Shown here piece after piece: positions 25,600 through 40,692 of a DNA stretch of 64,000 bases; within the stretch, counting starts at the first letter, position 1, and the number at the start of each line of letters is the position of its first letter. The translations under genes were made by a program, and so were the position numbers. The notes beneath the pieces are model-generated. The model worked only from the letters and a program-made list of their open reading frames with translations, was not told the DNA's origin and searched no databases. The DNA comes from Zootoca vivipara (Eukaryota), in contig NC_083277.1 of assembly GCF_963506605.1 (NCBI RefSeq), positions 58,032,001 to 58,096,000 of the forward strand, read 5' to 3'.

Positions 25600-27400
25600 G
25601 GATGGGCGGGGGGATGCGTTCCCCTCAAAGGATTTCCACCATTAGCCAGGAGGAACCGCTTGAATTCTGCCCCGTTGAGGGCAGGGCAGCCAACTTTTCA
25701 AAATACTTCTCTCCACCCCCGCGCCCCCGGCTTTTTTGAGCCTTTAATACCTGGCGCACCAGCAAGCAGGCGGTGCTGTGTTTTAAATGGCTGCGTTTGA
25801 GCTCCTCTTAAACGCCTAGGCGGGACAGTCCGTCCTAGAACAACCCTAAACGGAGAGGCGAGGGCTGCGGCGCCTTTCTCAGGCGCCTTTCTCCGAGAGC
25901 AATTGCACGAGCCTGCCCGCGAGAGAGCAGAGCTAAGCGGCCTTGAAAGGCGCTCTCTCCCGCCCGCCGGCGCTTTCGAGACTTCTGCTCTCCACTGCCG
26001 GCCCTCTCCTTTTCCGGCGAGTTCCATAGCATTCCCGCCGGTTACCGGTACCCAGCGAGCAGTCCCTCCACTCCCGCAGATCGAGGGGCGCGTGCTTTTG
26101 ACGCATTACGGGCGCAGCCGTCGGAAGCCCTCCGGAGGGGCCGAGGCTTTTAGGAGCAATACGGTCTTCTACCCGAGCTTCTCTCTCTCCCTTGCCCGTA
26201 GGTGCAGATGGAGACCGCTGCGGACGAGCCCACTTCCTCTGGAGGGGGAGGCTGCTGCTGCTGCTGCTGCCCTCGCTGCCGCTTCTCCTCCTCCTCCTCC
26301 TCTTCGACGAGCTGAGCACAGCGGCCGGTTCCATCGGGGGAGCTGTCTGGGGGGAAGGGGCTGGGAAGCCGAGGCGCGCGGTGGCGAGCAGGAGGCGGAT
26401 CCAAGAGAACGGGCCCGAGCCGGGACCTCCGAGGAGGAGGACTGAGCCCGCGGGGCTCCCAGCGCCCGGCTATGCGAGGTGGCTGAGTTGGCGGCGGGGG
26501 AGAGGAGGTTCGGGTGCCGTCAGGTAAGCGGGGCGGTCAAGCGGGGCGGGCGCTCTGCACCTGCAAGGCCGGCGGTGATTCGCGGGCTTCTTTCGCAATC
26601 CTCGCCGGGAGAGGCAGGCGGCTGGCCGGGGATGAGGCAGCTGGGAGGCGGAGGCTGCGGGAGGAAGCGGAGGTAACTGCAGGAGCCGCTTGCACCGGGG
26701 AAAGGCGGAATGGACGGAGCCGGTGTGTGCGTGTGTGTGAACGCTCTCTCTCTTTCTCTCCTTGGAACCGGGGGTGTGGAAGCGGGCGAGCCGAGCCGTA
26801 GGCAGAAACGGATCGGGAGCCGCGGGCGCTCTTACCCCGGCGATCGGGGCCTGAAGGGCGGGTCCCGCTTGCAGGGGTGATGTAGGGAGCAGTTCCTTTC
26901 CGCGGGGGCTTGTTGGGGGACGAAGAGAGGAGGGCGTTCCCCCATTCCCGGGGCGGCTTGCCTCTGGCGCTTGAGTATAGTGCAGCGTAGGCTGCTAGGG
27001 AGCCCGAGCGGCAGCAGGCTCCTTTGTTCTGGGGTTACGGATTGGGACATACAGCGAGAGAATTATGGGGCTGTGTCGTCGTCTTCCCTCTCCACCTCCA
27101 CCCCCTCCGAACGCATGCATTGGCCGATTACTTAAGATCCCTGGAGATGTCCTTTGCAGATCCCCTGGCTGCAGGAGAGGCTGTTGCTTGTGCAGCGTCT
27201 AGGCCGGGGGAGCAGCGGGAATGTCGTGGCTGCCTAGCGGAAGGGCTGTTGTGTTTAGGGAGGGCGTAGGGACCGCCTGGAGTTGCGCTGGGCCTGGAGT
27301 GGCGGCGGGGACCTGCCTTGGCCATTTGGGCGACGGAGGAGGGGCGATTAGTCGCGCCTGGACTTGGTGTTGGGCGACCCAGTAATGTCAAGCGCACTCA
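25600..27400 (+). promoter_or_regulatory. CpG island promoter with probable non-coding first exon ending at 26523 (gene divergent from CDHR2, RNF44 candidate by synteny)
   Basis: Very GC/CpG-rich, GC boxes, YY1-like aaatggctgc near 25785, strong donor CAG|GTAAGC at 26523/26524. Gene identity rests only on the recalled human head-to-head RNF44-CDHR2 arrangement. Confidence 0.75.
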
Positions 27401-29064
27401 AGGGGCCTGTTGTGTTGGGCGTGGCATGGACCGCCACTGTGAAATTCCCACCACCACCCACTTTACCGATTTAACGCAATGCATTGCTTGGCTCTGGGCT
27501 GCAAATCTCATTGGGATCACTTAGAAGGCTTTGCAGTAAGTGTGAACTCTTGGCGTGACTACTGGGGTCGGGCGGGGGTGGGTGGGATCGGTGCCAGTAA
27601 AGTTTTTGTACACCAGCACCGTGTGTGTGTAGATTGTAAAACACCGCAGGGAAGGACTCCCCTACAGACACATCTTTCATTTATTTATACGCTGTTACAG
27701 TGACTTACGAGGCCAGTGCTGTGTGCATTTGGTACCTTTGTCTATGTTAACACTAATGAACTGATGCAATGAAGTCTCTTCTGGAGTTTGATAAATGTTT
27801 AGCTCTGCCTCCCCATCCCCTTTTCCTCTTGGATACTGGCAGAGGTGCGAATGCTTTTGCCTGCCTTCTGTACTGCATCATATAGATGTAGATTTTCTTC
27901 TTAACATGAAGGCACAAGTTAACAGAACCTCATATTCTACTCTTCTGGCAAAGAGCGAGAGCTGTAACTTGCATGATGGGATTTGTAGTTCAAGGTGTTT
28001 GCTGTTGTATTTTATAGATTCCTATTTGGCACCTTTTTTAATGGGGGGGAGGGTGTATTTTCAGCTGAGCAAGGGCTGAAGGGCCAGCAACATTGGCCTT
28101 GCTCACTGATTCACTAGTATACCAGGTGCTGGGCTCTTTAACCCTCTATTTCTCCCAGTGAAAGCAGCACTAATGGCTTTGGCAAAGTCCTATCCTTAAA
28201 TAAGTATCTCAACTCTACACTCCTATATTGAAGCCAAGGTAACAGGAAAATGGTACAGAACAGCTTAGGTGCATAATCAGGAGGCTGTACCCAAATCTCT
28301 CATTTAATGCTGTTATTATTTTTCGAGTATGTATAGCACTGCTCTCTATCTGTGTGTGTGTTTTTAAAAAGTAAACTGTACATGCAAAAAAGGGAGCAGA
28401 ATGTGACTAGTAATTGCAGTCCCCCCCAACAAATAAATCACCAAGGAGTTGGATGGCACAGAATCATATGCTGCAATTACAAAGCCGGTATCATTGCTGT
28501 GATTTTGGAAAGAGGATCCCCCCCTTGTGCTTACCCACTTCCAATTTGTACTTTGCCCCCCCTCCCAAAAAAATATGGTGACCTGTGTCAGGCTTTGAGA
28601 AAATATGGAAGAGATAAAAATGGGAATAGTAGAACTGTGTAAGTTTTGATATGACACATGAAGACTAGTGGCAAGTTACTAGTGGAGGACTGGGCATCCT
28701 AGAATTGGGTGGCTAATCTGTGCCTCTCCAGATGTTGTTGGACTACAGCTCCCACCAGTCCAGCCACCAGGTACCAATGGGCAGGAAACTGTAGTCCAGC
28801 AACATCTGGAGGGCTGCAGGTTCCCCGTCCCTGTACTAGATAGAAAGTTGAGCATGCTGCGGAAAAGCCAAAGGCATACTGGCTGAAATTCCCCTCGTGA
28901 CAGTAAAGTGGTTTGTTCAATATTTCTCTGTTGCTCGGTTGTGGCATCATTTGGCAGCAGTGAGGCCTTGCCATATTTTACGAGAATTTGCAGAGGAGTA
29001 GCTGGGTTAATCCATTGCAGCAAAATGAACAGACACTCCCGAGACATCATAAAGACTAACAAAC

Positions 29065-29899
29065 TGTTAGGGCAAAATTCTGGGTGCGAGAATGCTCAGC
29101 CACCCAGCTCATCAGGCAAGGGCCTGTGGTCGTTGCGGAGTATAAAAGGAAGGAGTCCAGCCATGATCCGGAGCAAACAGCAAGGTTTATTACTGCGCAG
29201 CAGGTTCAATGCCAGACTGAACACTGTGAACAGGGCTGCAAGAACTTTTAAAACTTCCCACCACCATCCCATAATGCACATCGAAAGCATCATACATACA
29301 TCACTTGTGACAGGGTAAAAGGTCAGAAAAGGGGAAGGTGCAAGGGGCATTAGCATACAGGTAAACAGGAGGTAAGCAGGATTAGCATAAGGATGTCCCA
29401 GGACATTGTTAAGCAAGTACCAGTAAGTATCTGGGAAGGGATCCTTGAGTACCTGGTGGGGGGAAACAATGGGTCCAGTTGTGTGTATTGCCTCTGGCTT
29501 CGGAGGGTTGGGAATGGCAGGAGATGGTACCTGAATGGATTATGGATATGCAGAGGAGCACCACCCTGGCTACCTGACCTCTTGCTTAAGGGATTATGGC
29601 TGTTCCCTGCATCCCTGAGAGCCCTTGGCCAGAGTCGCAAAAAGGAGGTTTCATTTAGAAATAAAGATACACTGTATTCATTCATAAAGAAATATGGTTA
29701 CATAGAGTCTCAGGCAACAGAGAAAGGGTAGGAAAGGGAGCCTTTATTACTCAGGGCTTGATCTTGAGGGGTTCGTGTTGGTGCGATACTAGAGTGGTGT
29801 TGTAGGATCAAATGGGGTCCCCTTGAGGGCATTAGTGCCAATCTTGATTCCCAAATGAAGCCTCGTTTGGGTGCCCCCCCCCTATAAAATTCCCTAACA
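29065..29899 (-). repeat. 3' LTR
   Basis: Direct repeat of 37874-38708 (offset 8809), 8-bp terminal inverted repeats, minus-strand AATAAA near 29185-29190. Confidence 0.97.
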
Positions 29900-29910
29900 G
29901 TCCCCCATTC
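29900..29910 (-). other. Polypurine tract (short, GAATGGGGGAC)
   Basis: Purine-rich run directly 5' of the 3' LTR on the minus strand. Confidence 0.6.
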
Positions 29911-30023
29911 GGAGATAGATTCGTGACCCAGTTCTGAAAGAACAACGAATCTTTTCTCCGCTCCTTCCTGCCCTTCCCTGGGGTCCTGGGTGCCAAAGCT
30001 CTGTGATCTGGTATTCTCCTTCC

Positions 30024-31348
30024 TCAAGTGTCGCATCTGAACATATTCTGGGAAGAGGGTACGGTGCTGAGAATAAGTTCTTTAGGGAAAGAGATTTGAG
30101 GGGTTTGTGTCAGGGAAGAAGCGGAACAGGGAACAACAAGGGTTAATACAATGCATGGCACAACAAAACACAGGTACACATAAACTAAAACAATTCCTTT
30201 AAATAACCATCCTAGGTTGGGGGGGGGGGCAGCCCCATATGTCAAAGTCCGAAAGTCCTTCATGTTGAATAGCTTCCAGTTGTCCAGCCAACTTATGGAT
30301 ATTGTTCAAGTATCCCGGAATATGTAGAGTCTGGTCTGTGACATACGTGCAGCACTCAGAGTTGATCAGGGCACAAGTCCCGCCCTCACTGGACAATAAA
30401 GAGTCCGTAGCAATTCGGTTCTGTTCTGTTCTGCCTTCTGCATGAATTTTAAAAGTACGCCTGTAAGTTTAAGATGTCTACATGGTTGGAGCTAGCTCCA
30501 TACACAGGGAATAGTGCCCTGCCCCATGTTTCCCTATTGGCAGCCACGTCAGAGAGTTTGGGGAGGGATTTTGATTTTCCCTTATTCCTTTTCCTTCCCG
30601 CCGGTAAGTCGCGAGTGATAAAGCAAATCAGGTTCAAGAAAAGTTGGATCTGCTCCGAGCTGGCATGGGGCTGTACTGGTAGGGTGTGGGGGTTAGGAGT
30701 TTAAGAGGGTTATGTCCTTTGCAATCTCCCCGCAGCGCTGTGGTCCGGTGTGGTCCCATACTGGAGAGGTGGGTGAAGGGCCTATGGGGTGGTACCAACC
30801 CTCAAGGTACTCTTCCCCCTTTCCAGCCCTCTGTGTGTCCAGGATTCCACAGGCAGCAAAATCGCCTCAAACAAATCCCTTGTAGTTGGGGCTTTGAAAG
30901 TTTTGGGGTCAAGAGGAGGCACTGGAACCCAAACATTAGGTTTTCCGTTTGGTGTTGCTTGTCAGTATAAACATGCACAGCCCCTCCCTGCTCTATTTCT
31001 GTCCAATTTGGGTGGCGAAGGGCCTCACCTTGTCCATAGAGGAGGTACGATCCATTAGCACAGTCCATATGGTAGTATTGTTGTTCCATGGAAAGGTTGG
31101 CATATAGAGAGTTCCCAGTACTGAGTCCCAGTGATTTTAGGCACCAGCGAGTGACGTAGTAAGGTTTGGGAACCCGGGTGACAGAAGTTGAAATCCCCCA
31201 TTCGGTCAGGGTTGTGGTCGCCCCCTAGGTCTACAGTGTGGTAGTCGAGGAAGTGGCAGTCAGCTTGCAGTCTGGAGCATTGGTCCGACAGGACCAAGGC
31301 AGGTTGAGAGCAGAAGAACAGGGTAAGGAGGTAAAGGATGGGACCCAT
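30024..31348 (-). pseudogene. env: Retroviral env pseudogene (gamma-type TM), multiple frameshifts and stops
   Basis: Signal peptide MGPILYLLTLFFCSQPALVLS, basic cleavage-like RKRNKGKSKS, fusion-like WGRALFPVYG, ISD plus CX6CC (QNRIATDSLLSSEGGTCALINSECC) and hydrophobic anchor (GWLFKGIVLVYVYLCFVVPCIV), spread over at least five frame segments. Confidence 0.92.
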
Positions 31349-31374
31349 GTTCAGTTCAACGTGGAGCGACAAAC

Positions 31375-31570
31375 AACTGACAGCTGTCAAAGCATGAGTT
31401 GTCAAACGAAGCGATGAGTGAGCGGCTGACAGCTGTCAAAGCAGGAACTGTCAAAACAAAGCGACGAGTGAGCGGCTGAAGCGACGGTAGGAAGCAGGAG
31501 CGAAGCGAAGGCTGAAGCGACTGCAGGAAGGCTGAAGCGACGGCATGAAGGCTGAAGATAGACGGCAGGA
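31375..31570. repeat. Short tandem repeats between the pol relic and env
   Basis: 49-bp duplication containing TGACAGCTGTCA, followed by repeated ggctgaagcgac units. Confidence 0.85.
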
Positions 31571-31645
31571 ACTATTCACGTCTTAGGCGCAATTTGATGG
31601 TGTTGGGGTCTGGAACTATCTCCGAGGTCCAGATGTCCAAAGCGG

Positions 31646-31880
31646 TTTAGAGGAGATCCTGGTCTGGTCCGGTCTGTTGGGCCCGATCTTGGTCCCGATT
31701 CAGGTCCGGTACTGTTTTCTTACACCTAGTGTGATGCAGCCAAGAGTTCTTCTCCCCTATTTTAGAGCAGTGGGTGAGGTGAGGAGAACTTGAGATGGTC
31801 CCTCCCAAGGTGGTCAAAGTGGCTGCTTCTGGTACACTTTAACTGAAATCCAGTCTCCAGACTTCATGGATTCTGAAGCC
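31646..31880 (-). pseudogene. pol: Integrase C-terminal (GPY/F-like) relic of pol
   Basis: Translates to SGDWISVKVYQKQPL*PPWEGPSQVLLTSPTALK / GEKNSWLHHTRCKK with one stop and a 1-bp frameshift. Matches the gamma-type WxGPxxVLLTxPTA...WxH motif. Confidence 0.85.
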
Positions 31881-34800
31881 TCTTTTTTTGGTCAAATGAG
31901 TTAAAACAATTAAAAAAGATGTGTAGAGAAGGTTGGCACACTGCAGAGTGCCAGGTGGGACAAGAATATGTGGTGATAAGTTGGTCTAACTTAATAAATT
32001 GGTCTTAACAATAGCCTGATCTACTGGAAAGTATAAAAATGCATGAGAACCCTCCAATGGGGTAAAAGCAAAAGTATGGTAAACATAAAAACAATTACAC
32101 AAAAACTGTGATCCCCCCTCCCCCCATGGAAATAACACACTATCAGACATAGTTCAGCAATTCTACATAATAACACATAATATACACAACATACAATTAT
32201 TAATTCCACCCCAGTTGGATGTATTTGAGGAAATCTGTGGTTTTGAGGCAGTTCTTGCCTTTTTCACACATCTTTAGCCATTTGGCACATTTGCTTGAGG
32301 TTAGAAAGGGACAGAAAATGTCCTTACAATTCATCTCCCCCCCCCTTTTTGTCAGTCCATATCCTTTTGGAATGTGATTGTTGTGGCCAGAGTCTTCTTG
32401 GGAAGCTGTAAACAATAAAATCTTAATGCATTTAAGTATTTTATTCATCGCCTTTCTATATAGTTACTACTGTTATTACCTGCTAAGTTTGTTTGGTTCT
32501 TTTGCTAAAAGAGAACTTTATGAAGATAACTTAAAGGTGCTACCTGACAGAATGCAGTTACAAAACAATACTGTATTTGGAAGTACTTAGGTTAATTTCA
32601 TAGACATAATGGAAAAATAAATAAATAAATGAAAGCAGATTATTTGCAACCTAAAAAGAAGCATCAAAGCCCAAAACAGAGGGAAGTCAACTTTATATAG
32701 CAGGGGGGAAGAATGCCTGTAAGGGAAGAAAGACTAAAAGAATAAAAGGGATTACTGTTTGTATCTCCTCTCTTTTTTTTTTTTTTTTGCTGTGGAAGAA
32801 AACAAGAGGCAAAATACACCAGGATTAATACCAGTATATGGTAGAGGTAAATGTGAGATTAGTACATCTCAAGGAAGCATTTACTGACGAAGCATTTGCC
32901 CAGTGACCAGAAGATAGCAATTTTCTATTAATTTACAAGTGTGGAGGGGGCGTCCCCCCTTTTGTGTAAATAACATACTGTCAGACGTACAGTAGTTCAA
33001 TGTTTTTGTTGAATATCACACAACGTAAATTATATATCAGTTGTATGTCTTGAGGTCATCAAGTGAGCTTGAGACAATTCTGGCTGCTTTTAAATCCTAG
33101 GGCACAGAGTCTTGAGGTCGAAGAGAGAAAATATCCTTGTAATTCATCATAGTTAAGCATTTTATTCATTTAAATATTATTATTATCATTTATATTTAAT
33201 TACTGCTGTTATTGTCTACTCAGTCTGTTTAGTTTACTTCACCTAGTTTGGCTGTGGAGGAAACAAAGGACAAAAATGTTGTTAATTAGGACACAATTGA
33301 TAAGTTATTAACATTTTCCTTATGTGGTTCTGAATTCTCTTTGAGGTTCGCGTATCCTGTTTGAAAGGGACTATTATTACTATTATTATTTACAGGAAAG
33401 AATGACTTAGATGCTACATTCGTATGTACAGGAAGAAAAGGTAGAAATGCAAAAAAATTGCATAAATAAAACAAAATGATATTTAGATTACCACTCAAAC
33501 AACATTTTTTTCAGATGGACTGGACACAAAGATATCAGATTAAAAGGAAAAAGTTACTATCAATTAATACGAAGACATTATAAAGACCACACATGTTAAT
33601 ATTGGACTGTAACCTTAAAGATTTGAAGGTGAATGGGAAAATAATGGAAAACTGATTTAATAAATGGAAGCTAGGAAAAGGACCCATACGTCACAGAAGG
33701 GGTGTAGCCCAAGACCGCCCTCCCTAGATTCATCATAGGTACATCATGAAAGGGGAGGTCTGGTAGCAGTAATCTGAGCAGTCTGGACCCTGCCCCCTGC
33801 CCCCAAAACCCAATCAACAAGAGATATTTACATTTCCCTGTTTCCCAGCCAAGTTAATCACACCCTTTTGTCTGGCACTCGGGTATCAGGATGCCAGGGA
33901 TTACCTGAGACAATGAGAAGGTTCCCCCCACCCCCTTCTTCCTTGCAGAGGAACACCTGCTCAGAGAGTCAAAATGGTGTCAGTCAGGCCTGTCTTCCTG
34001 TGCTGCTTCAGACATGTGCCTGTACATTCATGTACATGTTTTATGAACAATTATTATATATGTGACCTTAAAATTCTTATAACAGAGCCTTAGTTTGCAT
34101 AGTCTGTCTGTCAACTGGGTGGATCTGACCATCAGGGTAGTATGAAGAGAAGACAGCTATTTTCTATGAATTTCCAAGTGTGAAGGGCGCTTTACATTAA
34201 GAAATTTGAATAATATTTCATGTGCAGAGTATAACCTTGACACCTCTTAAGTTACAACCTTCTTTTTCTCCTCTCTTTCTCTTCAAGCTGACATAGTCTC
34301 TGTGCATGTACAGAGTTCATGATTTAGAAATCCATTGTACCAATTGAAAGTGTTGCAGCTGTTGGCTAAGTCACCATTTGAATAGAGGAAGGGAAGGGTG
34401 AATAGGTTAGATTTTACCCAGAAACCCAGCAATTTACACTTCCACCAAACCAGCAACAAAAGTGGTCAAATTAAATTCTTTGGTAAGTTTAAATCCATTT
34501 CTTTAGCCTTTGTGTCCTGAGATATTTCTGACCTCTTATTTCCTGTTCCTTGCTGCTTAGGAGGCAGGCTTATAAATCTTAAACTTTAAATATATAAAAC
34601 TTCAATATCCAGACAACGCAATATTTTCACCAGAAAGCTGCAAGAAAAGTTTGGTCAAATTAAACTCCTTAATGAAGTCATGGCACTAATTAGCCATGTT
34701 TACTGTACTATATAAACATCTCATACCCCAGGCAAAAGAAATCTAGATTTGCCCCCTTTATCTACAGGGTTTTTGGGGTGCAGACTTTTATTCAAAATAT

Positions 34801-35627
34801 TTCACAAATGTGGATTATTATTATTAGTGTGCTTTCCCTCTAGTCATTAGCGGAACAATGACCCGCCCCCTTATGTACGGGTAAATGACCAGTCAGAATT
34901 CATAAATTGCAAATGTTTGTTTGTTTTAAATAACTTCAGCCATGGGCAGACTAAAATTCCCTGCCCCCTCATATATGGGAAAATGGCTACAGGGTCACAA
35001 TTCATAAGATATATTCTGCCATTTATTTACAAGGGGAAATGGTCAAGACTTTTATATGTGCTTAAACTTTAAACCTTAATAGACAAAATGGTAAAACTCA
35101 TATAATCACTCCTTAAAAAAGACACTCTTGTTCTAACTCTGAAAACCAATAATCTTTCCTTGCCAGAAAGCAGAGCTGGGCTGAATTTCAACCCATCACC
35201 ACATCAGACACATTGCCTTTCACATAGCTCTAAAATGGGAGTTAGAAGGGACCCTGTGGTCATTTAGTCTAACCCTCTAAGATACAGGATCCACAAGATT
35301 TGAATTAAAATACCAACTTTATACAGAACCCTTTAGCAGATGAGTTTTTCCTTAAGAGGTTATATCAGGAGCCCAACACAATTGAAGTTAAAACTAGACT
35401 CAGATAGACAATTCCTGGCTAAGGAAGCTCTACTTTTGACAAACAAATCACCTTTATAGGAATAGCTGTTCAATTTTCCTTTAGTCAATATTCCTCTAGT
35501 CACTTGAAGAAAGACTCCCCTTTTGAGCCTCTCTCAATAACAAACATTTGCACACCTCATGAAGTGAACATTTTCAAGTTTCAAAATATTTTCAAAGTAT
35601 TGAGCAAGCATTTTCAAGGTTACTTAC

Positions 35628-35894
35628 AAACACATTCTCTTTCTCTCCTACCTACCTAGCACCTTCGCATCACATACAACATACAATTTCAGACACATTC
35701 TCTCTCTCTCTCCTTCTACCTACCTAGCACCTTCACATCACATACAAAATGTAATTTCAAACACATTCTCTCTCTCTCTCCTTCTACCTACCTAGCACCT
35801 TCACATCACATACAAAATGCAATTTCAAACACATTCTCTCTCTCTCTCCTTCCACCTACCTAGCACTTTCATATCACATACAACATACAATTTC
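35628..35894. repeat. Minisatellite, 4 copies of 63-68 bp inside the ERV
   Basis: Unit aaacacattctctctctctctccttctacctacctagcaccttcacatcacatacaaaatgcaatttc, starting at 35628, 35691, 35759 and 35827. Confidence 0.92.
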
Positions 35895-37850
35895 CTCATT
35901 TAACTCCCCCCCCCCATTTGCAAGAGTCTGGTAGGGTTGGAAGGGATCTTGAGTAATCTAGTCCATCCCTTCTGAAATATGGGGATCTCAACACTATCAT
36001 CGCCCTTTCAAAGCAGGATACACATACATTTGAGTACAGATGGCTAACTGGGAAGGAAACACGGGCTATGCCCTATCACGGAAGCACACATGTGTACTAA
36101 GGGAAAAGGAAGGAAGGGGAAGATTAAAAGTACCAACTTTACATGGAGGCCTTTAGCAAACCTGAGGGTTGGATAAACAGTTTTAAGAGGGAATTTACTT
36201 TCTCACTACCACCATTCTGTCCAACTGGACCAAGGTTAAACTGACTCAGATAGACATTTGCTGGCTATGGAGCCTCTACTTTTAATAACATTTCCCTAGA
36301 AGGAACACCATATTTCATAGTCACATGGTCCTAATACTTCCAAGGATTCCTCATAACAACAACACTCTTCTCTCAGAAGGAGACCTACCTAAGGCTTTAT
36401 GAAATATAGACACTGCATTTTAGCTTGCAAAGAGCTGTTGTGCTCAATGAAGCTGGTTGCAGCAGAAACATTACATACAGAGCACATGGCTCCCTTGTTA
36501 CACAGACCTTAAACATTGTGAGTTCACAAACAAACATTTTCAAAGTTACAATCTCCCTTTTCCTAGCTTCCTGCTCCCCCTTTCTGTACAGAAAGGGGTA
36601 GGTATACACACACACCCTCTTTTACTCTCTGGAGAAAGATTGGCCTTCTACAGCCTCTTACAACCAACAAACATTCACACACCACTTCCACCCTTTTTCA
36701 ATATTTGCCATGTTTTTGGGTTGATCAATCCCTTAACATAAAATTATTTAAGCAAGCTTGCATTATTATTATTTTTAAACTTTTTTTTTTTTAACTTAAG
36801 GAAGGCAGTCTGTAGAGGTCATGGCCAATTTTTAAACACAAACTCCTTACATTCCCAAACCTTGATTACATTTCTTATTTATTTCAAGGGAAACAACGAT
36901 CTCTAGCAGACACAAGGAACAGATGCACACACACTTAACAGACAAAACAAATAACAGACAACATGTAACGTGAAAACATATATATACCATTCCTATTGTT
37001 TCTCAGTCCTAAATAAAGTTACCTAGCTATTTCACAGAGTTTCTCCTGAGCCCTAGCTATCTGGTTTCCTCCCCAGACCTTTGGTGCTCACTTTTCCCGT
37101 TTCTCTTTGGGGTGCTTCCAACCACTCTGCCATGTCCTGCCTAATCCCTGTTAGGCTACCCCTCCTGGCAACCTCCTACCTATCGTCACAATCTTGAGAA
37201 ATAGGGGACCCTACTGGACGCCCACGCTTTGCGGTGCCAGATCAGGTACCCCCTTGGATAGAATTTTCGCTCCGGAATACCCCCCTTGCTTTTGGAAGCG
37301 GGCTCACGCACGATACACGTGTTACGTGGCTCGACCAGTGCGGCTGGGGTAAAGACAGGACAGAAAAGGCTTCAGCCTGCTGGCTGAAGTGGTTGAAAAA
37401 GAGCCTTTGGTCCCTTGCTTTTGGACAGGGCCTTCCTGCCAGGGCGGCTGACCAAAGGACCCCCACTCTTTTCTGGAAAAGGGGGGGTGGAGAAGCAACA
37501 GAGATAGAGCTCAGAACTCCCCTTTCGAGTTGAGCACGGCACACGGTCCGGAGAGACAGGACAGAAAGCACGATAGATAAGAGGGCAGAGAATTCAGTTG
37601 CCAGGAGATACCACCCCGCTACCACCAGTGCACTGGGTTTTAACCTTATACTCACACACTCCTCCGTGTTGATCCTGGGGATGAAGAAGCTGGCCGGCCG
37701 GTTCTTGCCTTTGCTCCCTGGCTGGGTCCTTCGAGACTTGCAGATTACCGCCTGGAGGATGGCCGAGGGTCCAAAGGGGTCTTCCCAGGCAAAAGGGCCT
37801 GGTGCCGGCTGAAGATCTTGGGGCCCTCAGTCAGCCACACAGGAGAACCG

Positions 37851-37871
37851 CAAGTCCCTGTTCGGGCGCCA
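37851..37871 (-). other. Primer binding site, tRNA-Lys3(UUU)
   Basis: Minus strand TGGCGCCCGAACAGGGACTTG, 2 nt from the 5' LTR. Canonical 18-nt Lys3 PBS plus 3 more tRNA-complementary bases. Confidence 0.95.
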
Positions 37872-37873
37872 AA

Positions 37874-38708
37874 TGTTAGGGCAAAATTCTGGGTGCGAGA
37901 ATGCTCAGCCACCCAGCTCATCAGGCAAGGGCCTGTGGTCGTTGCGGAGTATAAAAGGAAGGAGTCCAGCCATGATCCGGAGCAAACAGCAAGGTTTATT
38001 ACTGCGCAGCAGGTTCAATGCCAGACTGAACACTGTGAACAGGGCTGCAAGAACTTTTAAAACTTCCCACCACCATCCCATAATGCACATCGAAAGCATC
38101 ATACATACATCACTTGTGACAGGGTAAAAGGTCAGAAAAGGGGAAGGTGCAAGGGGCATTAGCATACAGGTAAACAGGAGGTAAGCAGGATTAGCATAAG
38201 GATGTCCCAGGACATTGTTAAGCAAGTACCAGTAAGTATCTGGGAAGGGATCCTTGAGTACCTGGTGGGGGGAAACAATGGGTCCAGTTGTGTGTATTGC
38301 CTCTGGCTTCGGAGGGTTGGGAATGGCAGGAGATGGTACCTGAATGGATTATGGATATGCAGAGGAGCACCACCCTGGCTACCTGACCTCTTGCTTAAGG
38401 GATTATGGCTGTTCCCTGCATCCCTGAGAGCCCTTGGCCAGAGTCGCAAAAAGGAGGTTTCATTTAGAAATAAAGATACACTGTATTCATTCATAAAGAA
38501 ATATGGTTACATAGAGTCTCAGGCAACAGAGAAAGGGTAGGAAAGGGAGCCTTTATTACTCAGGGCTTGATCTTGAGGGGTTCGTGTTGGTGCGATACTA
38601 GAGTGGTGTTGTAGGATCAAATGGGGTCCCCTTGAGGGCATTAGTGCCAATCTTGATTCCCAAATGAAGCCTCGTTTGGGTGCCCCCCCCCTATAAAATT
38701 CCCTAACA
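37874..38708 (-). repeat. 5' LTR
   Basis: Adjacent to the PBS. No difference from the 3' LTR by eye, and the three ORFs lying wholly inside the LTR translate identically in both copies. Confidence 0.97.
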
Positions 38709-40692
38709 CAAACTTATTGTGATATACCGGTAAGTCTTTTGTGGGTCAGAGCTCACTTTGTCACTGAGATATATGAAGTGGAATATGACTAAGTGAGCAC
38801 ATATGGTAGGTAAACCTACAAAAGAGAAGTAAATTGGTTTTGATCTGTGCTTCCCCCCCAAAATGTTAAGGATTGGCTTTTCCTGTGTGCATCTCCTCAC
38901 ATGCTTACATAAATGTGCGGCTTTCACCGCCAAATAAACACCCCCCCCTTTAGTTTGGTAGTGTCTTAACCTGTTGTCGCACCTTTGTTGGACAATGTCT
39001 TCTGTAGGGATGGGGAATGTCTGGCTTATTAATGGCTGTGCTTTTGACATTAGTGAAAACCAGCCTTTTCTATCAAGACTTTTGGGGGATTTGGCAAATT
39101 GGGTTTGTGGGCCATTGTGTTGGTTGTTGAGTGCTTTCATTGATTTATGTTGCTAGCCATCCTGGTTGTTGCTGCGTGTTCACTTTGTTTAGAAAAAGAG
39201 GCAGGATATATAAACTTTTAAATAAATCAAGTTAAACAGCAAAATACTGCTATAGAGCTGGCATAGTACTATGCAAAACATGCAGCAGCAGCAGCAGCAA
39301 CAACAACAATTTTTCCAGAGAATGTTTGCCTGGCTTGGTCTCATCCTGAGTTAGTATCAGTTGTTGCACTTCTAAAGGGGAAAAAAATCATAGCTCTTTT
39401 GTTGGACTTTACTCTTTAATGATTGTGGTTTGACATGGTAGCATGTTATCAACAGTTCTAAGAATTTTGGCTAGGAAGTGGTCTGTAAATAAGATTCTTT
39501 TGCTGCTTAAAAATATTATTTTGAAAATCTTTTTTTTAAGCAACTCTTAGGTGAAATGACTGCATAGAGGGCAGCTCTGAATCACTTGTATTAAAAAAAC
39601 CCTGCCTTGAAAACTAGCTGTGTGATAGAGAGGTCTTGACATAATAATGACTTTGGTCTTACTTGCACATACAAAAGGCCAAGTCAATATTTTAGGGCTT
39701 GCTTGATCTTGTAAATTTCCTAAGTGACCACACACAGTGCAGAAGGTAGACCAGCAAACAGACTTTTCAAACAAACAGTACCACACAAACTGTGCTAGAT
39801 TTAGCTAAGTGCATTGCAAGAAGTTTTGTCAGCATCAAGAAAATGTCAAATGCCCACACTCAGTCCTTTCCTCCCCCTCTTATCCACCCAGTGATACTAA
39901 AGATACAGATAATAAGTGCTAAAAGGTTTCCTATCTTGAGCCTGTTGTTGTTTGTTTACATCAGGAATGGGGCTTGTATCTCCCACCATCCCTGATTATA
40001 TAGGTCATGCTGCCTGAGGCTGAGGGAGTGGTAGTCTAACAATACCTGGTTTATATGATCAAGTTCTATATCATAACTCTTCAGGGAATATACATGATGT
40101 ATAATCTGTTGTTTGAAGTACTAATTCTACATTTATTTCACTGAAAATACCTGAGCAGTTAAGTTATGGCCTGGAACCTGGACCAGGAGTTGCTTGGTGT
40201 ATCTGTTGGCATCTGTTGATGGTCCTGCCATCTCTACCATAGAACCAGCTCATTTTTTGTACCTGTCTGTATGGCATTCTACCTCCCTCCCACAACACCC
40301 ACCATGTTCTGAATTATTTCCCACTTACAACTTACCAAGCTAAGGTAATGCCCACAAGGTATGGGGACGTTACCTGCGGAATTCATCCCCCTCTAAGGCT
40401 AACCCTATTGCTCCATTGCATAACACAGTGGGAATCTGTTGCCCCATAGCAACTTAGCAGTTGCCTTTGCTCAACAGAGATGCTGTTTTTTCCTGACTAG
40501 CAATCAAATGACATGAGAGCATTATGCTGCCACTGTTCATTCCCATGGGGTGATAAAGCAGCCAGTTACCCCCATATGCCATGGAGCAAATGATTGGCCA
40601 TGGCCCTAGATCCATCCCAGAAAGTACTGACTGTTGGCAAGCAATTCCTTCCTCTGGGTGGAGATGAGGAATAGATTGGTGCTTTGCTCTCA

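Follow-up and report, generated by a model that had tools for sequence, protein, structure and literature searches.

The question raised by this locus is how a provirus with two identical long terminal repeats (LTRs) can carry genes that are broken throughout. The window analyzed here is a stretch of 64,000 nucleotides from the lizard Zootoca vivipara (contig NC_083277.1, positions 58,032,001 to 58,096,000), and the element in question occupies 29065-38708 on its minus strand. The element and its relatives are referred to as family A. The analysis points to family A as a non-coding class I endogenous retrovirus (ERV), present in at least 12 nearly identical recent copies, that is likely packaged, reverse-transcribed and integrated by the proteins of a second family, designated B; a probability of about 0.7 is assigned to this reading. 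The parts of the element are as follows, in its own 5' to 3' direction:

38709..38713: upstream copy of the target-site duplication (TSD), CAAAC on the plus strand
37874..38708, minus: 5' LTR, 835 bp
37851..37871, minus: primer-binding site (PBS), 21 nt that pair with tRNA-Lys(TTT), CCA end included
37733..37858, minus: long hairpin predicted in the leader, conserved among A, B and three further relatives
37122..37873, minus: B-like 5' leader, 75% identity, stopping just before the gag start of B
31859..37121, minus: non-coding filler, 5,263 bp, 37.5% GC, observed/expected CpG ratio (CpG o/e) 0.14, substituting for the gag-protease-reverse transcriptase-RNase H-integrase core
35627..35894: tandem repeat of 68 bp in four copies, within the filler
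34087..35560, minus: filler segment nearest to a third family, C (92-95% by BLAST)
31575..31876, minus: C-terminal remnant of integrase, interrupted by stops and a change of frame (63% identical to B in amino acids)
31377..31571, minus: short tandem repeats separating the integrase tail from env; B has a longer homologous block
29996..31348, minus: env remnant with a start codon and a signal-peptide-like start
29900..29910, minus: short purine-rich tract adjoining the 3' LTR, candidate polypurine tract (PPT), identical in 12/12 complete copies
29065..29899, minus: 3' LTR, same sequence as the 5' LTR
29060..29064: downstream copy of the TSD, CAAAC on the plus strand

The element is a retroviral provirus inserted by an integrase, as LTRs, a short TSD, a tRNA-derived PBS and a purine tract are all present. 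The two LTRs agree at 835/835 bases and have TG..CA ends. The PBS begins 2 nt past the 5' LTR and corresponds to the CCA and the 18 nt preceding it at the 3' end of a tRNA-Lys(TTT) whose gene is present in the same genome; no tRNA gene was found within the window. The identical LTRs, perfect TSD and 21-nt PBS match reported in the first-pass annotation were therefore correct to the base. That annotation had further described the genes as long dead and their defects as older than the integration. Searched by tblastn with the proteins of family B, family A was matched only in the integrase tail and env, and not in gag, protease, reverse transcriptase (RT), RNase H or the integrase core. Profiles from seven related families likewise gave no gag or pol match in the filler (best independent E-value 13), with the positive controls of the same search reaching 7e-12 for the integrase tail and 1e-38 for env, so that the first three genes are indeed unrecognizable. 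A Pfam scan of 23 minus-strand frames of the element returned only a weak TLV_coat match (E 0.01) and two unrelated sub-threshold matches. The env lesions were compared in 15 usable rows of 16. Frameshifting deletions near 31103, 30620, 30425 and 30185 are common to 15/15 usable copies, including copies diverged by 2.2-3.8%, and the integrase remnant has stops and a frame change in 12/12 complete copies. Since the same env lesions occur in all usable copies, the defects are older than the spread, as had been proposed. An apparent deletion in the transmembrane subunit (TM) was only partly borne out: TM is hit by smaller deletions, one near 30425 and two that fall in the membrane anchor (near 30207 and 30185), but the largest (~570 nt, near 30620) lies in the surface subunit (SU), of which the C-terminal half, CxxC motif included, is lost. 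The regions of the furin-like site and of CX6CC are still present, and the first env stop lies at codon 97 in 13/15 copies, at codon 93 in one and at codon 32 in one. Compared with B, env shows proportions of synonymous differences (pS) of 0.45-0.82 and of nonsynonymous differences (pN) of 0.02-0.24 per site, whereas dN/dS among A copies is 0.62-1.3 on small counts, implying that env was selected while viral and has been drifting since. Family A is therefore a non-autonomous LTR element, with no gag or pol coding capacity and with many independent insertions that carry the same defects, and it is close to certain that its spread was non-autonomous as well.

The dispersal of family A can be followed through its copies. 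A genome search with the A LTR yielded 40 scored matches at 97-100% among 462 candidates, the exact A-type U5 end occurs 205 times, and searches with the env region and the leader found 16 loci at 95-100% and 17 at 98-100%, respectively. Twelve complete copies, the window copy included, have both LTRs and their own flanks, with TSDs of 5 bp in seven, of 4 bp in four and of 5 bp with one mismatch in the last. They lie on different chromosomes and are mutually 1-19 substitutions apart over ~9.6 kb (at most 0.2%), and their pooled LTR pairs show 0 substitutions in 10,019 bases, a divergence below 0.03% by the rule of three. At an assumed substitution rate of 1-3 x 10^-9 per site per year, the mean age of the complete copies would be under ~50-150 thousand years. 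A single identical LTR pair bounds divergence at only ~0.36%, and the youth that had been claimed for this insertion is upheld because the 12 copies are taken together. The genome-wide search for loci with the same env frameshifts but different TSDs, suggested as a check in the first-pass annotation, accordingly succeeded: the env lesions recur in all 15 usable copies, and the complete copies have different TSDs. Furthermore, several loci have a private single-base variant present on both LTRs of that locus, making assembly collapse, which had been named as a possible refutation, unlikely. Copying mediated by long interspersed elements and segmental duplication were excluded by the complete LTRs and separate TSDs. 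Older members also exist, one with 6 substitutions in 843 LTR-pair bases and three with env 2.2-3.8% from the window copy. The closest sibling of the window copy (L011, G000:C12:14.943-14.952 Mb; 99.97%) carries a deletion that spans the purine tract, and its 3' LTR is truncated. A preference for CpG islands is not claimed (8/15 A sites versus 7/20 evenly spaced controls, p = 0.32); flank GC at A sites is slightly higher than in controls (p = 0.027).

The proteins required for such a spread point to family B, which was revealed by searches with the env and leader of A (11 loci by leader) and which supplies the predicted relative, with open gag-pol frames and a Lys3-type PBS. Its members are ~12 kb long with LTRs of 1,146-1,188 bp, and gag, pol and env frames are open in 4/8 copies examined. 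Gag and pol form one frame across a single stop, env is of gamma type with CxxC and CX6CC, and the domains Gag_p30, RVP, RVT_1, RNase H, rve, MLVIN_C and TLV_coat are found with catalytic motifs present; the nearest solved structure to the RT is that of murine leukemia virus (MLV) type. The presence of env and of a Gag start of the form MGxxxS, unlike in the mouse element MusD, which is not known to have env, suggests that B may form budding particles. Family B is a class I (gamma/epsilon-related) ERV. A database protein identical to its pol segment carries the label Zootoca vivipara, in agreement with a lacertid host. In an RT tree of 28 rows from one search, midpoint-rooted and with one short row omitted, B forms a clade of its own with families D, E and F and Podarcis sequences (99/98), apart from the MLV clade (100/99), and its placement in the genus Gammaretrovirus was therefore rejected. 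In age, B resembles A, with 0-1 substitution in 5/5 LTR pairs measured.

The cis-acting regions of the two families were compared next. Both have the same LTR termini and PBS core, and homology extends over the first 49 nt of the LTR (88%), the R-U5-PBS-leader region (75%; about 74% in the R-U5 part), the integrase tail, env and the leader hairpin, while most of U3 is unrelated. An open-frame partner matching A in PBS, LTR ends and leader is thus available in B, at 71-88% identity, a looser match than in ETnII/MusD or recKoRV. Ten loci from the remaining open-frame families (D, E, F, G and H) were compared, and none has the LTR ends or the PBS of A. In the leader hairpin, 13/49 pairs are altered on both sides, a value reached by 0/500 shuffles; the test used only six related sequences, the same ones that yielded the structure, and is suggestive only. 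The hairpin is a candidate packaging or dimer signal. Hairpins of the MLV GACG type were considered and rejected, as the A and B leaders contain one GACG each, in places that do not match. A candidate splice donor lies near 37655 in the A leader, and B has one too. Exact U5 ends number 19 for the B type against 205 for the A type, an excess that may be analogous to the parasite excess described in cattle (PMC10924933). At its C-terminal end, the B integrase carries tandem repeats of 13 residues, and between it and env lies a long tandem-repeat block (L025:4349-4800 region); A keeps both in shortened form at window 31377-31715. In three further loci (L056, L057 and L058), U5 and leader resemble those of A/B (68-80%) but the primer sites differ, and neither B proteins nor C are matched; these are possibly further lineages with switched primers.

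The origin of the filler, measured at 5.3 kb instead of the ~6 kb first estimated, was sought by searching the genome with part of it, which led to family C (1,680 candidates, 40 scored). The six C loci examined are 7.7-8.2 kb long, with 0-9 substitutions between LTRs, TSDs of 4-5 bp and no B-protein matches. The exact C U5-PBS junction occurs 75 times. The C PBS fits tRNA-Arg(ACG), and over 1.9 kb of R-U5-leader C is 83% identical to the open-frame family F; C is likely a parasite of F. Six C copies and one more locus cover 76% of the A filler, 55% at >=88% identity, and ~24% has no assigned source among the C interiors compared. In the best filler segment, a 1.2-kb part is only 2.4-4.2% in substitutions from C, versus 17.5-28.7% for the parts common to A and B. 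With B-like ends around a C-like middle, A is a mosaic whose central segment has been swapped for the interior of another retroelement. The description of the genes as long dead therefore holds for env and the integrase tail, which were broken before the spread, but not for gag, protease and RT, which were replaced rather than decayed. Transfer from C to A is the simpler reading of the direction, C being more numerous and diverse. Older A copies hold a further C-type piece of 377 bp that the young copies lack. Capture of a host gene was rejected as the source of the filler, as the best matches are C interiors. Selection on length is not claimed either: the filler is within ~2% of the replaced B segment (5,375 bp), but older A copies are longer, and the C interior is ~3.6 kb shorter than the F segment that it replaced.

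Several observations concern these families in their own right. At least 75 proviral C copies are present, fully non-coding, some with 0 LTR-pair substitutions. One older A copy has a C-type solo LTR within its filler, in reverse orientation (L021:283-1367), and, conversely, an A-type LTR lies inside a C copy (L024). Long open frames are also found in at least five more class I families (D, E, F, G and H), in which the LTRs of a pair are 99.4-100% identical, and ~30 E loci score nearly alike in RT. An E-family provirus sits within a young A-type solo LTR, split near base 62-66 (L082/L083, G000:C3:102.646-102.659 Mb), and copies of B, D, A and C are clustered on the small contig C18 (G000:C18:1.45-1.67 Mb), with some near-duplicate pairs ~32 kb apart. 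Several recent retroviral invasions appear to be under way in this genome simultaneously.

A scheme for the origin and spread of family A can be proposed. In reverse transcription, both LTRs are made from one RNA, and a tRNA primer and particle proteins are needed; recombination between unlike RNAs requires co-packaging. In the first step, the RNA of a B-related virus and that of a non-coding C element would have entered one particle, where two template switches would have put the C interior in place of gag-pro-pol. The LTRs, Lys PBS, leader hairpin, integrase tail, env region and PPT would have been retained from the virus, and env would have decayed afterwards without selection. In each subsequent round, full-length A RNA would enter B particles by means of its leader, be primed by tRNA-Lys(TTT), be copied with identical LTRs as the result and be inserted with a TSD of 4-5 bp. 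Co-packaging, the identity of the helper and present-day activity are all matters that we infer. On the cis signals held in common and on equal youth, B is the best candidate found and probably the main helper, mobilizing A in trans.

A number of results weigh against this scheme. In their common parts A and B differ by 17.5-28.7% (23% in the leader and 29% in R-U5, with no significant match in U3), so that B is a cousin of A and not its parent. No coding relative closer than B was found among the scored candidates of the env and leader searches (35/35 and 37/37), nor was the parent of A found in the assembly. The RT search scored 141/3,882 candidates, so that another helper could be missed, and a genome search with PF00078, which returned long frames of other retroelements, was of no use for finding one. 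TSD length is uninformative as a helper marker, as B and C give 4-5 bp as well. In the filler tree, which has no root, A does not fall within C, and the filler itself has five AATAAA on its sense strand. Reads were examined over window 27600-35600 in three DNA runs (three samples, two studies) and one RNA run. Among the contigs listed, the empty-site allele was not seen in the three DNA samples, and ongoing movement is thus not shown. RNA depth over A env and integrase is at most 1.2 reads (one run, 6% read, tissue not known). Over parts of the filler it is 30-48 reads with many differences; these reads probably derive from C, which is apparently transcribed.

The distance between A and B (18-29%, with unrelated U3) also speaks for a helper other than B, namely the true parent of A with A-type LTRs, whether exogenous, segregating in other lizards or recently lost. 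The ~170 A-type LTR ends without a known interior could partly be relics of such a parent, and koala populations with recKoRV but no KoRV exist (PMC6112702; bioRxiv 10.1101/2024.12.11.627920). No coding element with an A-type leader or env appeared among the scored candidates, however, and the LTR pairs of B are as young as those of A; this explanation is considered improbable, although it survives better than the others. Somewhat less credible is cross-packaging of A mainly by another active class I family, either F, with which C is paired, or E, which has more copies, in the way that MLV packages VL30, which is not an MLV derivative (PMC4859993). The exchange of filler between A and C implies that RNAs from both systems, B and F, came into contact, the RT tree described above unites B, D, E and F in one clade, and the ~30 E loci are nearly equal in RT score; yet the PBS, LTR ends and leader of A match B only, and a DNA match of A to F or E was looked for and none was found.

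It is very improbable that the copies are older than they look, their LTRs having been equalized by gene conversion or assembly collapse and their genes having decayed after insertion. One LTR pair is a weak clock, and a 294-bp contig running from the host flank into 26 bases of the LTR is present in 3/3 DNA runs, at full flank depth in two and at half in one; these 26 bases are below the 31-base bridging threshold, and one sample may be the source of the assembly. The window insertion is therefore common rather than private. Against greater age stand the near-identity of copies on different chromosomes (<=0.2%), their own TSDs, their locus-specific LTR variants and their identical lesions. 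Depth of DNA contigs over env is ~6-10 times that of the flank, in line with a multi-copy family, although depth is not a copy number. Least credible of all is retention for a function, with the env start acting as a secreted receptor-blocking peptide or the LTR serving a host gene: the 97-codon frame has a signal-peptide-like start and the same length in 13/15 copies, and the window copy is ~1.4 kb from a CpG island, but the env frame accounts for just 82 of the codons, the substitutions that separate the copies look neutral, almost no env RNA is present in the single run examined, and the CpG-island enrichment is, as given above, not significant.

The preferred reading, mobilization of A by B, may also be set beside known systems, of which ETn/MusD, recKoRV and the D-type of bovine ERVK are the closest analogues of A. 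Like A, the koala recKoRV elements, recombinants of koala retrovirus (KoRV) and PhER, place viral LTRs, leader and env end around the interior of a high-copy non-coding endogenous retroelement, with TSDs, and co-packaging was proposed as their route (PMC6112702). Their LTRs are often identical to those of KoRV (PMC6112702), while A is 18-29% from its likely helper with unrelated U3; moreover, the genome that holds the filler donor C also contains an open-frame partner matching it (F), unlike in recKoRV, and the host is a reptile. In cattle, the defective morph of ERVK[2-1-LTR] with a swapped central segment outnumbers the competent one at 85:15, compared with 205:19 exact U5 ends here, and flanking coding remnants are kept in both the bovine D-type and A; its authors name the swap as a pattern common to ETn/MusD and recKoRV (PMC10924933). 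The bovine pair is betaretrovirus-like, whereas A is class I and has no gag piece, and the bovine morphs share LTRs, recombine widely and have measured germline mobilization, which for A is inferred (PMC10924933). Mouse ETn, also non-coding, takes its proteins in trans from an open-frame partner whose LTR, PBS and leader it carries, as proposed for A, although the ends of ETnII and MusD are >90% identical (PMC2265474), unlike those of A and B. Mouse VL30 is likewise non-autonomous, class I related and helper-packaged, with many copies, identical LTRs and different TSDs, but it has decayed gag and pol traces and no env, the reverse of the pattern in A, which also has a foreign interior (PMC4859993). 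HARLEQUIN and other human ERV1 mosaics resemble A as recombinants between ERV1 families, with interior segments of MER57I and MER4I, but HARLEQUIN is an ancient fossil (PMC5753468), whereas the LTR pairs of the parasites, donors and candidate helpers in this lizard are all near-identical. No squamate or reptile case of such an element was found in the literature searched (titles and abstract openings, mostly open-access, no supplements).

Around the window copy, a CpG island lies at 26000-27500 (GC 0.61-0.68, CpG o/e 0.66-0.92) with a splice-donor-like site near 26524, and the element is ~1.4-2.5 kb downstream of it, antisense to the presumed plus-strand gene. The left flank at 28715-28822 holds a small inverted-repeat element with very high read depth, probably a repeat resembling miniature inverted-repeat transposable elements.

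What is new here is that a parasite design in which the central segment is swapped for an old retroelement, noted in mouse, cattle and koala (PMC10924933), reaches a reptile, which suggests that such a swap is a general fate of endogenous retroviruses. An added twist is that the filler donor C is itself likely a young parasite of a second identifiable helper, F, with another primer, so that the genome has two candidate helper-parasite pairs with near-identical LTR pairs and a common filler. Cross-packaging between distant class I viruses (63% RT identity) becomes testable by population sequencing alone, as does the idea that defective elements drive their helpers extinct. The A copies are recent insertional mutations, the window copy being antisense and just downstream of a CpG island. 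Tentatively, the AT-rich, CpG-poor filler might be a portable parasite cassette, a cis-acting RNA module that enhances packaging, export or evasion of silencing and is passed among non-coding ERVs riding on helpers with different primers (Lys for B, Arg for F). If this were true, a defective lineage could outlive its parent virus by changing its host virus, in a network still active in wild lizards.

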